Assembly (NCBI GenBank): GCA_019057385.1
Contig: JAHQJS010000004.1
Coordinates: 340,535-364,534 of the forward strand
Reading direction: 5' to 3'
Origin: Candidatus Borrarchaeum weybense
Lineage (GTDB): Archaea; Asgardarchaeota; Sifarchaeia; Borrarchaeales; Borrarchaeaceae
DNA: 24,000 bases
Part shown: positions 1,231 through 5,241 of the stretch, piece by piece
Numbering within the stretch: the stretch's first letter is position 1
How the letters are laid out: every line of letters starts with the position of its first letter
Notes under the pieces: generated by a model
Told to the model about the DNA's origin: nothing
Database searches by the model: none
The model's input: only the letters and a program-made list of their open reading frames with translations
Made by a program: the position numbers and the translations under genes

Positions 1231-4200
1231 TTAGGGCAAAAGATCCTTAACTATAACTGGAGGACCTTTTTTCTGTGGTGTATAAATTCCCTCCATGTGT
1301 TGAAACCTTTCAAACATTAGAAGAAGAGCTTCTTTATCTGGAGCATAAATAAAGGGGACGAATCGCTTCTTTTCTAGCAAAAAATCCTTGAGTTGTAGTG
1401 CGCACTGCCTTATAGCATCCTTTACTGTCATATATTCATCCAGATAGTATATCTCTTGATTAAGTATATCACCAACCAGTCTCTCAACTTTGTAGTGCCC
1501 GTTCCACGTTAAATGATAGAATCGTTCACGCTCTAATGTTTTACGTATCTTAAAATCGGCTTTTGTAAATTTACCATATATACATGCTAAGATGAAGGTG
1601 AACCTGAATAGGGGAAGAAACATCTCTCGGAAGTCAACGACGGTGCCAAGAAAGGATCGCCGTGTTTTCTTAAAATGCAATATCAGTTCATCGGGCACCC
1701 ATGAGAACCCTACTTCAGCGAGTGCTTTTCGACAGTAAAAATTAAGATGGCGATAGACGGCATTGAGTGCCGCACTAAAGGGAGTTCGCGCCTTTGCTTC
1801 ACCCAGAAGCACCACTGTGGCAATATAGCGATCGAGGGTACGACTAATGATCTCAAAGTAACTGCCTTGCAGCAAATGCTTGGGAACCTCCCAGGCAACG
1901 CTTTCCACTACCCCTTCAAGACCGCGAAGGTTGTCAATATTGCCCCGCCAATAGAGAAAAGTGTACGCCACGCGATCCAGCAGTTGGGATAAGAATTCCT
2001 GTGCCTCCGCAGAAGATAATATCCCCTCTTTTTCAAACCAGAGAATTGCATTGGCGAGCCCCATATTTTTACCCATCACCAGCAGCCTCGCTAATAACGT
2101 GCCTCGTTCCGTCCCTCTGAGTTGCTGGGCGGTGTGTTTCAGTTCATCAGCTAATTGTTGTTTCTCTGGTGTCAGTGTATGCTGTGCAAAGAATCTGCCT
2201 TCGGGCGAATTAATATCAATGAGTTTCTTGCCATAGTTCTTACGAACTAGTTGCGAAACTTCTCCACCCTCGATGATGATGTGACAGATAGCACCGATTA
2301 AATATCGATGTGTTGTTTTCCCGTCCTTTAGTGCATGAGCAAATCGTTTTTTCTTAATATCAAGCCGTTCACCGCACTTGACACGAATGGTTCGTTTTGG
2401 TCGTCGAATGTAAACCTTTGTTTTTTTAACCCGCGGGACATAATTTCCGGGCTTGCCTAAAAGCAAATCCAATCCTTTTAGCATCAAACCTCGGTTGCCT
2501 GGTTTCACCACCAAGTCACCTTTCATGGTCAAATAATAGCGGGAATTGCATTCGGGACAGACTGTGTATTCATTATAGCAGGATGGCAATTCCACCGTAC
2601 CGCCGGAGTAGCAGAAGTAGCACGGAGTATCATCGAGTGTTTCTTGTATGGCACTAATTGTGCGCTTTTTTAACTCCCGCGCTTTCTGATGGTATTCGCA
2701 GGCACCCATCTTTGGTGCGGCATAGGATTTCCTTTCTTGCCTTCCAATTTTTGTGTTATACTTTTGATTCAACACACAGATATGTGCACGTTTCGATCTG
2801 CGACGATCCTTCATAGAATTTATCCGAAAGAAGCCACATGAACCACAGGTGAGCCGCAGATGTTCAGGAATACTCATATTCGCGTCTGCCACATAGATTT
2901 TAGGGCGACCTCGTAACTGCCCTCGAGAGATAAATTGGATTTTTCCTTGGATTCCTAACTTCTTTGCATGTTTCACTACCGTAGTATGGTGAACTGGTCG
3001 ATTATACTGTTTACGAACCTCTGACGTAATTTGTGCGTAAGAGATGACCTTATATTGATTAATAATGTTATAAATTGCTTCTTGAAGTCCCGGATATGGT
3101 ATCGGTCTGTACTTTGGATACCTGCGTCTCCTTCTGCCTTTGTTCCCTCTTTCAACTTCAGGCTCTTTGTATTCAGGATTTAGTTTTGTGGTAAGTTTTT
3201 TGGCAACCCTTGCCGCCCTCGGGTCACTGCGCCCCAGATAGTCATAACTTGCTTCTGCGATCCACGACGCCGTCTTTCTATGTGCTTCTGCATCACCCGG
3301 TCGTATGTTTACCCGAGTTGCAGCTTTTGTGACCGAAGAACCCTGACTGAGTAACCATACGAAAGAGGCATATTGCTGGGCGGTATATCGTGTGGTGTTG
3401 CTCACTTCATGTATGCTTCGACCGATTAGTGTAATTACGTGCCGGGAGAATTCCCGTTCTGAGGAGCAATGATGTGTGGCAAAAAACTTCTTGATCCTTA
3501 AGGCGGTTTTAATCGGCAGTAAAAATTGGCTGGCCCAGCGTCCTTTGGCTGTTGCACTAAACTTTCCACCATTTCTTTTGATAAAACCTTCCTTGATAAG
3601 TGTGTGAAGGATTCCCTCTCTTTTTTTCTTCGGTTCATCCTGCTTAGGTCGAGCTAACAGTTTCTCTCTTAGTTGTTGTGTAAAGTCTTTCAACTGGTCG
3701 TGGGTGAATGGTGTCAACAGTAAGCGAAGCTCTCCGTTTTTGACCCCGCGTGTAGTGGTGTTCTTCTTGACCCACATGAAGAATTTTCTCGTTACACGTT
3801 TCAAGTCGAATGGGAGAGAGCCTTCGTGCGTTTCGCGCAATAAGGACAGTAAATGAAGTTCGTTATTGAGCCGACAAAGCTCCTCTTCCTGGTTCATGAG
3901 TGCGTTATTCATTAGTTCGGACCAATTCTGTAGCAATGCTTTGTGTTGATGCCAGAAGTAATGTCTTTCAAGTTTGTGAAGTAATTGATTCGTGGATGCC
4001 GAGCCTCTAGCTATCAGGGTGAGTACAATATCTGCCAAAGAAGAACGTGCCTGGCTTGTTATACGATGTTCTTTGACTATCAATTGTCCCTCGACGATTT
4101 GTATCTCCTTTTGCTTCAAAATTTCTTGATCGTCCCCCACGAAGATCAGATCAGCATAGCCCACCCGATGATGGCGCGGTCGTGCCGCCCTGCCACTCAA

Positions 4201-5241
4201 TTGTATCAACAGGTGAGGGTTGAACATCCCGGCATCGGCAATTATCACCCGTTTGATCGGAAAGTCCACCCCCTCTCCGTATTGAATCGTTGACAGAAAA
4301 ACCTGAAATTCACCCTTCTTAAGCCGTCTCATAGCTTCTTGTTGTTCCTCTTTACTGAGCCCGGCGTGACTGTAGCCCACGGTGAGATCGAGTCCACAAC
4401 TCTTAAGAAAGGACTGCAACTCTATAGCTCGTTGTTCAACCTGATTTCGTGTGTAGCAAAAGATGTGCACGATTTTAGTCCCCTGATCATCACCATACGA
4501 GCGTTGTTCAAAGGTCTTTTTGATCAAGCGAGCGAACAGAAAGCGTTTTTTTCGTTCAATCTGCTCTATGGTGCTGCCTGAAACCCCACAAGATGACACA
4601 ATAAGCTTCGACTGCCGTTCGTTGGTATGGATAAGTTGAGCGTCAAGCCAACTTACCAGTTCCTCGGCATTCCCCAGAGTAGCCGAGAGATAGATGATAT
4701 GCGGGCGAGGGCGTAACCAAGATCTTGCATTGACGATTGCAGTTTCTAGGCGAGCACCCCGCCCTTTGTTGCCCAGATTGTGCAGTTCATCGACCACAAT
4801 CAATCCTATCTTGTCTAAAAACGGATACTCGAAATGCTTAACTAGCAGTCCATTGAAGGATTCGTAGGTGCTGATGAGGATATCCGCCGTTTCAAGCTCT
4901 TCAGGAGACGAACGGTCATCTCCGCTGACTTTGAGGATGGTACAGGCGTCGTGATACCACTCTTTGAACTTGTCATACATCTGATCGATCAGCCGTTTGG
5001 TCGGCTCAAGAATTACACAGCGCATCCCTTTTCCAAGCACGCGGGTAGACACTATTTGGGATATCAAGGTTTTTCCCGAAGCGGTAGGAGTGTACAACAC
5101 CTTGTCCTGCCTTTGTTTACCAGAAAAACATGCCTCCCATTGAAAGTCGTAGAGGGCGTTAATGTCAGCCTGTTCCAACCGTTGACGTATGAATTCGTAG
5201 TTTAACCCTCTTTTCGTCATTGTAATGAACTGGCCTCTCAA
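1231..5241 (-). CDS. Fusion protein, 1336 aa: Hel308/Ski2-like SF2 helicase, basic linker, wHTH, Cys/His Zn clusters, Cas1-like integrase domain
   Basis: Single uninterrupted ORF. Start is TTG at 5241, or ATG at 5220 ('MTKRGLNYEF'). A TTTATATA box lies 35 nt upstream. See the domain sub-features below for motifs. Confidence 0.8.
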   Translation of the reverse strand: MRGQFITMTKRGLNYEFIRQRLEQADINALYDFQWEACFSGKQRQDKVLYTPTASGKTLISQIVSTRVLGKGMRCVILEPTKRLIDQMYDKFKEWYHDACTILKVSGDDRSSPEELETADILISTYESFNGLLVKHFEYPFLDKIGLIVVDELHNLGNKGRGARLETAIVNARSWLRPRPHIIYLSATLGNAEELVSWLDAQLIHTNERQSKLIVSSCGVSGSTIEQIERKKRFLFARLIKKTFEQRSYGDDQGTKIVHIFCYTRNQVEQRAIELQSFLKSCGLDLTVGYSHAGLSKEEQQEAMRRLKKGEFQVFLSTIQYGEGVDFPIKRVIIADAGMFNPHLLIQLSGRAARPRHHRVGYADLIFVGDDQEILKQKEIQIVEGQLIVKEHRITSQARSSLADIVLTLIARGSASTNQLLHKLERHYFWHQHKALLQNWSELMNNALMNQEEELCRLNNELHLLSLLRETHEGSLPFDLKRVTRKFFMWVKKNTTTRGVKNGELRLLLTPFTHDQLKDFTQQLREKLLARPKQDEPKKKREGILHTLIKEGFIKRNGGKFSATAKGRWASQFLLPIKTALRIKKFFATHHCSSEREFSRHVITLIGRSIHEVSNTTRYTAQQYASFVWLLSQGSSVTKAATRVNIRPGDAEAHRKTASWIAEASYDYLGRSDPRAARVAKKLTTKLNPEYKEPEVERGNKGRRRRRYPKYRPIPYPGLQEAIYNIINQYKVISYAQITSEVRKQYNRPVHHTTVVKHAKKLGIQGKIQFISRGQLRGRPKIYVADANMSIPEHLRLTCGSCGFFRINSMKDRRRSKRAHICVLNQKYNTKIGRQERKSYAAPKMGACEYHQKARELKKRTISAIQETLDDTPCYFCYSGGTVELPSCYNEYTVCPECNSRYYLTMKGDLVVKPGNRGLMLKGLDLLLGKPGNYVPRVKKTKVYIRRPKRTIRVKCGERLDIKKKRFAHALKDGKTTHRYLIGAICHIIIEGGEVSQLVRKNYGKKLIDINSPEGRFFAQHTLTPEKQQLADELKHTAQQLRGTERGTLLARLLVMGKNMGLANAILWFEKEGILSSAEAQEFLSQLLDRVAYTFLYWRGNIDNLRGLEGVVESVAWEVPKHLLQGSYFEIISRTLDRYIATVVLLGEAKARTPFSAALNAVYRHLNFYCRKALAEVGFSWVPDELILHFKKTRRSFLGTVVDFREMFLPLFRFTFILACIYGKFTKADFKIRKTLERERFYHLTWNGHYKVERLVGDILNQEIYYLDEYMTVKDAIRQCALQLKDFLLEKKRFVPFIYAPDKEALLLMFERFQHMEGIYTPQKKGPPVIVKDLLP
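1234..2409 (-). other. cas1: Cas1-like integrase domain (aa ~945-1336) of the fusion ORF
   Basis: Colinear with the Cas1 pattern. The N-terminal beta region is 'TIRVKCGERLDIKKKRF...ICHIIIEGGEVSQLVRKNYGKKLIDINSPEGRF'. 'NLRGLEGVVESVAW' carries E1109 (nt 1915-1917; E. coli Cas1 has 'LRGIEG' at E141). 'SAALNAVYRHL...KALAEVGF...ILHF' carries H1189 (nt 1675-1677). 'VVDFREMFLP' carries D1203 (nt 1633-1635). H-to-D spacing is 14 residues, against 13 in E. coli Cas1 (H208/D221). Confidence 0.65.
2548..3090 (-). other. wHTH-like segment plus two Cys/His metal-binding clusters (aa ~718-898) of the fusion ORF
   Basis: An 'RRRRR' basic linker precedes it. wHTH-like segment: 'ISYAQITSEVRKQYNRPVHHTTVVKHAKKLGIQGKIQFI'. 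Cluster 1: C799xxC802...H820xC822. Cluster 2 is a classic ribbon, C874-Y-F-C877 ... C895-P-E-C898 (nt 2548-2622). Confidence 0.5.
3172..5241 (-). other. Hel308/Ski2-like helicase region (aa 1 to ~690) of the fusion ORF
   Basis: Motif I 'TPTASGKT' (nt 5068-5091), motif II 'DELH' (nt 4780-4791), motif III 'SAT', motif VI 'QLSGRAAR'. These are followed by Hel308-like winged-helix/ratchet-type segments ('LADIVLTLIARGSASTNQLLHKLERHYF', 'LIKEGFIKRNGGKFSATAKGRWASQFLLPIKTA'). Confidence 0.75.

Follow-up and report, generated by a model that had tools for sequence, protein, structure and literature searches.

Asgard RAMP (ARAMP) modules are summarized in two reviews as array-less derivatives of type III CRISPR systems that occur in Asgard archaea, carry highly diverged Cas5 and Cas7 homologues and include "a distinct form of Cas1" (PMC8730458, PMC12669027), a protein that the literature also terms "enigmatic". 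The relevant section of the 2025 classification places HRAMP and ARAMP together as CRISPR-like, nuclease-associated systems, with HNH and PD-(D/E)xK nucleases as their usual partners (PMC12669027). Here we analyse a 24,000-nt window of the Candidatus Borrarchaeum weybense genome in which a single gene fuses a Hel308/Ski2-like helicase to a Cas1-like integrase, beside a gene for a Cas7-like RAMP protein. The locus is an ARAMP module. From sequence comparison and structure prediction, the likeliest role of the fusion protein is that of a Cas2-independent, helicase-coupled integrase or nuclease that would work with a complex of the Cas7-like protein, a second protein combining RAMP-like and HD parts (X) and a candidate structured RNA (E). 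New to the description of these modules are six copies of the fusion gene and about eleven pairs of the RAMP and X genes in one genome, two inserted segments of ~10 kb, purifying selection and the E element. Coordinates refer to the whole 24,000-nt stretch unless prefixed; C3, C4, C5 and C9 denote contigs, L numbers denote stretches of genomes, and G307 and G308 are congeners, G308 being Ca. Borrarchaeum yapensis.

The module resembles ARAMP as summarized in its Asgard host, its diverged, type III-derived Cas7-like protein (X being a candidate for the Cas5-like one), the lack of an array and the presence of an associated nuclease, here the HD domain of X; it also has a distinct Cas1. The host is placed among the Asgard archaea by its congener Ca. 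Borrarchaeum yapensis, by the Asgard names attached to relatives of X and by an ESCRT gene in the window. The summary passages on ARAMP mention no helicase-Cas1 fusion, no HD domain on the Cas5-like protein, no conserved structured RNA and no multi-copy or insertion behaviour. An initial annotation of the window, made by a model from the DNA letters, named no described Hel308/Ski2-Cas1 fusion. The fusion may indeed be undescribed, as it is absent from the review summaries and from a full-text literature search that did not include the primary ARAMP paper, but its novelty is weakened by the locus, which belongs to a named group whose distinct Cas1 had already been described. The primary account of ARAMP is reportedly that of Makarova et al. 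(2020, CRISPR J 3:156).

Adaptation proteins fused to an additional enzyme acting on nucleic acids have precedents in reverse transcriptase (RT)-Cas1, Cas4-Cas1 and Cas2-Cas3, the last of which brings the Cas3 helicase to the Cas1 complex in type I-F systems. The window's protein has the same fold and the same metal-binding residues as the Cas1 of CRISPR Cas1-Cas2; unlike in CRISPR adaptation, its module has neither cas2 nor an array, and its helicase is Hel308/Ski2-like instead of Cas3 and is fused directly to Cas1.

The reading frame is uninterrupted over all 1336 codons on the minus strand (Table 1), and the landmarks named in the initial annotation are in place: the helicase motifs TPTASGKT (51-58), DELH (151-154), (L)SAT (185-188) and QLSGRAAR (347-354), a basic run of five arginines (703-707), and LRGLEG (1105-1110), ILHF (1187-1190) and VVDFRE (1201-1206) in the Cas1 part. 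Because homologues begin with MTKRG, the ATG at residue 8 is a more likely start than the TTG. Pfam recognizes DEAD (32-194, 3e-26), Helicase_C (258-355, 1e-14) and Cas_Cas1 (958-1234). At least nine full-length homologues were found. The closest paralogue in the same genome, on C5, is 89% identical with zero gaps, and the ratio of non-synonymous to synonymous substitution rates (dN/dS) between the two lies at 0.16-0.20 whether taken over the helicase, the linker or the Cas1 part (about 0.18); both copies are under purifying selection. That two genes were joined by a sequencing or assembly error, or that the frame is a decaying pseudogene, is refuted and has practically no chance of being right: the same uninterrupted architecture is present at six loci of this genome, in G308 and on independent metagenome contigs, relatives carry the same domains, and the dN/dS value is low.

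The identity of the C-terminal part as Cas1 is supported in agreement by Pfam, by profile comparison with the Protein Data Bank (PDB) and by fold comparison. Its PF01867 match scores 31.9 bits against a gathering cut-off of 22.3, and a paralogue reaches 40.3 bits; more distant paralogues in the genome fall below Pfam Cas1 detection. A narrow profile of ten close family members matched no solved Cas1 in the PDB. An exhaustive profile search of 1.84 billion representatives returned 59 clusters, mostly of proteins of 800-2600 aa, and a Pfam scan of 44 of these distant relatives found Cas1 in 28 (best 9e-16), accompanied by DEAD and Helicase_C in 15. A broadened domain profile of 41 sequences matched Archaeoglobus fulgidus Cas1 (4n06) over nearly its whole length with an E-value of 5.8e-22 and the casposase 6opm with 1.8e-18, while Cas4-Cas1 and RT-Cas1 scored weaker. 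The AlphaFold (AF2) model of this part has a predicted local distance difference test score (pLDDT) of 85.5 and a predicted TM-score of 0.76, and shows an N-terminal beta domain followed by a helical catalytic domain. The best 50 Foldseek matches to the model in the PDB were exclusively Cas1 or casposase chains, aligned over ~365-390 columns with TM-scores by target of 0.50-0.65.

The candidate catalytic residues proposed earlier, E1109, H1189 and D1203, fall together with E1206 in the E, H and D..E metal-site columns of 4n06. In Escherichia coli Cas1 the metal-binding residues are E141, H208 and D218/D221. All four residues of the fusion are invariant in the 9-10 family members compared; among the 41 distant homologues E and H never vary and D almost never does. 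On alignment and model, the C-terminus is a genuine two-domain Cas1 with an intact E-H-D/E metal site.

The first ~690 residues had been called a complete Hel308/Ski2-type helicase, and profile-profile alignment covers that whole length. Direct sequence matches end near residue 430; hhalign extends the homology to Asgard Hel308-like proteins from residue 16 to 687 (template 24-722 of 735, probability 100, E 1.4e-64, 630 columns), and the template is itself a relative of Hel308/Hjm (2zj2, 1e-92). The closest solved helicases are all Ski2-like: Hel308/Hjm, Brr2, ASCC3, SLH1 and the helicase of Pol theta. Like Hel308/Hjm, the protein has all superfamily 2 (SF2) motifs and profile homology over a whole ~700-aa protein; unlike it, it is a paralogue recruited into a fusion, with ~25% identity in the profile-profile alignment to the Asgard Hel308-like protein. 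It is read as a Hel308-like paralogue and not as the repair helicase because it scores only 112-156 bits with the NCBIfam Hel308 equivalogs (NF040935 and related models), far under their cut-offs of 887-1216. A PADLOC match to Cas3 is weak (3.7e-6, two short stretches), and the protein lacks the HD domain that the Cas3 call expects in the same chain.

In the linker, CGSC (799-802), HIC (820-822), CYFC (874-877) and CPEC (895-898) are where the initial annotation had seen two Cys/His clusters, but H820 is not conserved. Eight cysteines are invariant (C799/C802/C822/C848 and C874/C877/C895/C898), and two zinc sites are therefore suggested. The winged helix-turn-helix segment supposed at ~715-790 found no support in any profile search or in the ESM Atlas, where a search with residues 708-930 gave no usable match. 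With a complete helicase joined to a Cas1 whose active site is intact, the earlier phrase "helicase-coupled integrase" remains the best reading of the protein.

Two genes on the same strand follow the fusion gene. The product of the first, the Cas7-like RAMP gene, scores 27.9 bits with Pfam RAMPs (cut-off 22.1). It carries invariant C75, H76, C100 and C104, which may form a zinc site. The second gene, X, lies just to the left of the window. X has no family match in sequence-profile searches and shows invariant H, HD, H, HH, D and H residues. In its predicted structure (pLDDT 85.8) the C-terminal half matches the HD domain of Csm1/Cas10 (6ifk_A; Z 8.4, root-mean-square deviation 3.5, 141 residues aligned), and the N-terminal 105 aa match the RRM domains of RAMP proteins (Cas6, type IV Cas5, Csm4) with Z of only 5-6.5 and no profile match. 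Foldseek gave X no PDB match at E of 0.001 or below, and the ESM Atlas search with X no usable match. A complex prediction for the RAMP protein with X scored 0.51 against 0.01 for the best control, with at least 82% of contacts agreeing between runs and a partner pLDDT of at least 70. Of 80 solved complexes 58 reach the mark, as do 2 of 110 mismatched pairs, but scores of 0.60 or less came from only 7 of the 80 and from both mismatches. The prediction lends weak support to the two proteins forming a complex.

Array-poor class 1 derivatives such as type IV and HRAMP share with this module a minimal core of Cas7 and a Cas5-like protein (in this module a putative one) and a type III ancestry, and the HD domain of X is closest to that of Csm1/Cas10. 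The module differs from these systems in having no Cas10 body, Cas11 or Cas6, and in carrying the HD domain on a small RAMP-like protein. When the long extensions at the C-termini of distant helicase-Cas1 proteins were searched with hidden Markov models of RAMP and X, neither domain turned up. The initial annotation had suggested looking for cas2 and arrays to the left of the window; the module and the 20 kb to its left hold neither a Cas2-sized open reading frame (ORF) nor a CRISPR array. A canonical cas1 (269.6 bits) and the only array found in this genome lie ~190 kb away, and the 37-nt repeat of that array shows no meaningful likeness to E.

The element E, ~125-145 nt long, is present in 26 strong copies in this genome; besides the copies of Table 1, about 20 more sites carry it. 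It follows both the RAMP gene and X, and copies that adjoin either gene are always on that gene's strand. A covariance model finds E at another organism's fusion locus (L029), at Borrarchaeum loci, in G308 and at 33 loci of Borr-, Sif- and Promethearchaeota genomes, and leaves unmatched six bacterial sequences that had hit the core pattern of E by chance. Over 67 copies, 94.7% of cells are paired against 85.4% in shuffled alignments (reached by none of 500), and at most 56% when partners are slid; compensatory changes occur in 16 of 26 pairs. Most of the variation in the long-range helix is between U.G and U-A, which fits an RNA made from the gene strand. The sequencing runs listed are metagenomic DNA runs from sediment, marine sediment and soil, with no RNA run among them. 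The fold of a single sequence is not distinctive (z -1.0). No Rfam family includes E, and the Rfam gathering search of both module regions returned nothing. A TATA box stands upstream of some copies only, so no promoter was assigned to E. Some copies lie within ORFs of 115-156 codons; a coding role was rejected on account of 1-nt indels between copies and the covariation of the stems.

Six fusion loci and about eleven RAMP/X pairs are found in this genome. Relative to the window's copy, the fusion proteins are 89% (C5), 73% (C3) and, in three cases, 33-39% identical, one of the last being split. A word-based search returned only six clusters of close fusion relatives. The initial annotation had proposed searching archaeal genomes for the same architecture; among 400 genomes of the phylum it recurs at full length in this genome and in G308, but elsewhere the helicase part was found alone. 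X is more widely spread (82 clusters, which bear Borr-, Heimdall-, Thor- and Promethearchaeota names), and RAMP-X pairs without the fusion exist, those in Heimdall-type loci standing beside MazE-like and LAGLIDADG-like genes.

Two of the copies lie in segments that are absent from congeners. The copy in the window, on C4, is part of a 10.35-kb segment (window -1594 to 8760) holding X, the RAMP gene, the fusion gene, a 746-aa tetratricopeptide-repeat (TPR) protein and a small ORF; in G308 and G307 it is missing, and FtsY stands directly beside prefoldin. Both junctions carry about 114 bp of the FtsY 5' end. Of these two copies, the detached one on the right is 94% identical to G308 and the one attached to the gene has diverged further, a pattern that, read from the sequence, is that of an element bringing a surrogate gene end. 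The C5 copy sits within a segment of 10.56 kb whose absence from G308 is precise, and the two copies have ~6.5 kb of DNA in common. The fusion gene has a GC content of 44-48%, its flanks 34-38%.

The initial annotation had also entertained a casposase-like mobile-element enzyme. On a casposon reading, the module would be a self-synthesizing transposon whose casposase has been fused to a helicase. Casposases likewise are Cas1 proteins that act without Cas2; 6opm is the second-best match by sequence and by fold, scoring close to CRISPR Cas1, and casposases, as integrases of mobile elements, are in some reported cases fused to domains that bind zinc and to helix-turn-helix ones. A 2600-aa distant helicase-Cas1 homologue (L031:5472-9651, GCA_019058315.1) adjoins genes for TnpB and a family B DNA polymerase (PolB), although that polymerase may be a housekeeping one. 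In the present protein the extra domains, including a whole helicase, lie N-terminal to Cas1, unlike in casposases. PolB is absent among the ORFs of the C4 and C5 segments, Cas7- and Cas5-like genes are not casposon cargo, and at the C5 junctions we found no terminal inverted repeat and no target duplication of 14-15 bp, only chance 7-9-mers, while C4 is flanked by the ~114-bp diverged duplicate. A casposon is thus very unlikely.

Table 1. Coordinates of the features discussed, in window positions unless a contig (C) or genome stretch (L) is given.
Feature	Position	Strand	Basis or remark
Helicase-linker-Cas1 fusion gene	1231..5241	-	1336 codons from TTG; likely true start ATG at 5220
Hel308/Ski2-like SF2 helicase part	3172..5241	-	aa 1-~690; motifs I, II, III and VI, homology to Hel308 C-terminal domains
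Linker	2392..3171	-	aa ~691-950; R5 basic patch, unconfirmed winged helix-turn-helix-like stretch, two four-Cys sites
Cas1-like two-domain integrase part	1231..2391	-	aa ~951-1336; E1109, H1189, D1203, E1206
Fusion-gene upstream region common to paralogous copy	5242..5314	-	TATA-like TTTATATA at ~5276-5283
Spacer between fusion and RAMP genes	885..1230	-	promoter-like stretch, repeated upstream of next gene
Cas7-like RAMP gene, 269 aa	75..884	-	Pfam RAMPs 4e-6; PADLOC Csm3 3e-7; family alignment
E after RAMP gene	1..56, continuing left to C4:340457 (also given as 1-45 with L004:19923-20000)	-	5' part inside window
X, RAMP-HD gene, 270 aa	L004:19008-19820	- (same strand as fusion)	just left of window; predicted structure
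E after X	L004:18817-18937	strand of X gene	second E, further left
E copies on C5	L005:8037-8161, 9447-9572, 9719-9840		
TPR-repeat protein, 746 aa	5695..7935	+	divergent from fusion gene, within inserted segment
Right junction of C4 segment	8760..8873	.	duplicate of FtsY 5' end
Left-junction FtsY 5' copy of C4 segment	L004:18293-18406		joined to gene

We put at roughly even odds (about 0.5) the reading in which the integrase inserts or moves the module's own DNA, making the locus a Cas1-based mobile or semi-mobile island and not a site of CRISPR spacer uptake. Mobility of the module is proposed because of its multiple copies, the empty sites in congeners, the FtsY duplication, the GC contrast between gene and flanks and the dN/dS of 0.16-0.20. 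The Cas1 part, probably a dimer and without Cas2 as in casposases, would cut and join DNA; the fused 3'-5' helicase and the zinc/DNA-binding linker would load Cas1 on DNA and unwind the substrate; and E RNA could combine with the Cas7-like and RAMP-HD proteins into a small ribonucleoprotein for finding or cutting nucleic acid.

Several points weigh against this proposal. No mobile unit can be delimited, because nothing but the ~6.5-kb module is common to both inserted segments, whose right-hand parts differ; the C5 junctions show none of the repeats expected at transposon ends; and the empty sites of the congeners could also have arisen by deletion there. E, a candidate RNA, may not be a dedicated partner, because most copies in other genomes lie away from RAMP genes. 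A defence island would account equally well for the leucine-rich-repeat (LRR) and TPR neighbours and for the HD nuclease, and the literature yielded no experimental or biochemical study of any ARAMP.

A fixed, non-mobile defence system is an alternative that we consider possible but rather unlikely. The Cas7/RAMP-HD/RNA complex would sense an invader, the helicase-Cas1 protein would degrade DNA as a Cas3-like helicase-nuclease in which Cas1 serves as a nuclease and not as an integrase, the LRR and TPR proteins would be sensors, and the many copies would have arisen by ordinary duplication within defence islands. Between them, the SF2 helicase and the HD nuclease do supply both activities of Cas3, on two separate proteins. 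LRR or TPR genes divergently adjoin four fusion copies in this genome (including those at 5695-7935, L005:15160-16125, L008:3816-6161 and L009:13447-18070), a TPR gene follows the L031 homologue (L031:18062-19018), and among distant homologues LRR is part of the same polypeptide in two and WD40 in one. Transposon ends were not found, and the 2025 classification, in its section on these systems, treats HRAMP and ARAMP as nuclease-associated (PMC12669027). Against this stand six fusion copies in one genome, as divergent as 33-89% identity, which would be unusual for a defence system; two copies lying in ~10-kb segments precisely inserted when compared with congeners, of which one has a surrogate gene end; and a complete integrase fold and metal site kept under purifying selection. 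We favour the module-moving role over that of a Cas3-like defence effector.

The arrangement of E at some loci allows two further readings of the Cas1 protein. Most copies elsewhere are solitary, and the 3' boundary of E is sharp, with variable sequence beyond it. Tandem copies separated by unique pieces occur in G308 (E-116 nt-E-83 nt-E-X-E) and on C5 (E-146 nt-E). The first 38 nt of the 83-nt piece (L043:2535-2617, minus strand, contig C9) match the 5' region of the 16S rRNA gene at 92% identity, the counterpart being G000 C5:332712-332749 in sense orientation, and 31 nt of the C5 piece are 87% identical to host sequence abutting the left junction of the island. This last match is a direct repeat of ~31-37 nt (L005:9673-9703 and L005:7953-7983, equal to C5:119672-119702 and C5:117952-117982), one copy lying 15 nt downstream of the E placed after the RAMP gene and the other being host sequence at the left junction; it could be a target duplication of the cassette or a guide-target pair.

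In one of these readings E would be a guide-RNA scaffold or giant repeat, and the ~37 nt downstream of it would be read as a guide, with which the Cas7/RAMP-HD/E complex would direct helicase-Cas1 to matching DNA. It is allowed by the 31-nt junction match, the 16S-like piece in G308 and the sharp 3' boundary, and we regard it as unlikely. In the other, which we hold to be about as unlikely, helicase-Cas1 is an adaptation-like enzyme that inserts fragments beside E as a very long repeat, and E-spacer-E transcripts guide the Cas7/RAMP-HD complex. The tandems, the two matches and the variable sequence that begins at the 3' boundary of E are what such an enzyme might leave. Yet just three intervening pieces were seen, of irregular lengths (83-377 nt), most E copies are single and many lie far from RAMP or Cas1 genes, and recombination between E copies can also account for duplicated pieces. 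Systematic screening of the 110 nt downstream of each E copy for guide-like matches yielded no further ones, the returns being limited to paralogous promoter repeats and a single local repeat of 25 nt.

Some features of related loci and of the rest of the window are recorded here. Two fusion-less RAMP/X pairs of this genome lie at L012:10654-14667 (minus strand) and L011:6985-8511 (plus strand). One adjoins a 1337-aa protein with weak, sub-threshold matches to NACHT/NPHP3_N (NTPase) and a DUF11 domain, and the other a putative TnpB-like gene, called from its N-terminal sequence only. In the Heimdall-type loci L034:5241-7137 and L036:1479-7130, RAMP/X are divergent from a MazE-like gene and proteins of ~525-555 aa with weak LAGLIDADG_3 matches; L034 additionally has a PD-(D/E)xK gene, and no Cas1 is near either pair. 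Within the inserted segment of the window, a 188-codon ORF (8107-8673, plus strand) with a sub-threshold HhH-GPD match is possibly a gene fragment. Beyond it, 8936-11915 holds prefoldin, eIF6 and ribosomal-protein genes, and 12288-16558 a Vps36/EAP30-like ESCRT gene with zinc-ribbon proteins on its flanks, one of which has an SPFH domain; together these regions are ordinary Asgard chromosomal backbone.

The locus provides a concrete example of ARAMP, with an intact Cas1 active site joined to a full Hel308-like helicase, a Cas7 and RAMP-HD pair, a covarying RNA candidate and signs of mobility. Should the guide reading of E be true, the system would be a Cas1-based counterpart of CRISPR-associated transposons or, alternatively, a CRISPR-like memory with ~140-nt repeats that takes up fragments such as rDNA. 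If the protein is merely a helicase-nuclease, Cas1 has been reused as an effector. If the integrase mobilizes its module or is guided by RNA, it would represent a new coupling of Cas1 to target choice, and would bear on the relations among CRISPR adaptation, casposons and RNA-guided transposition.

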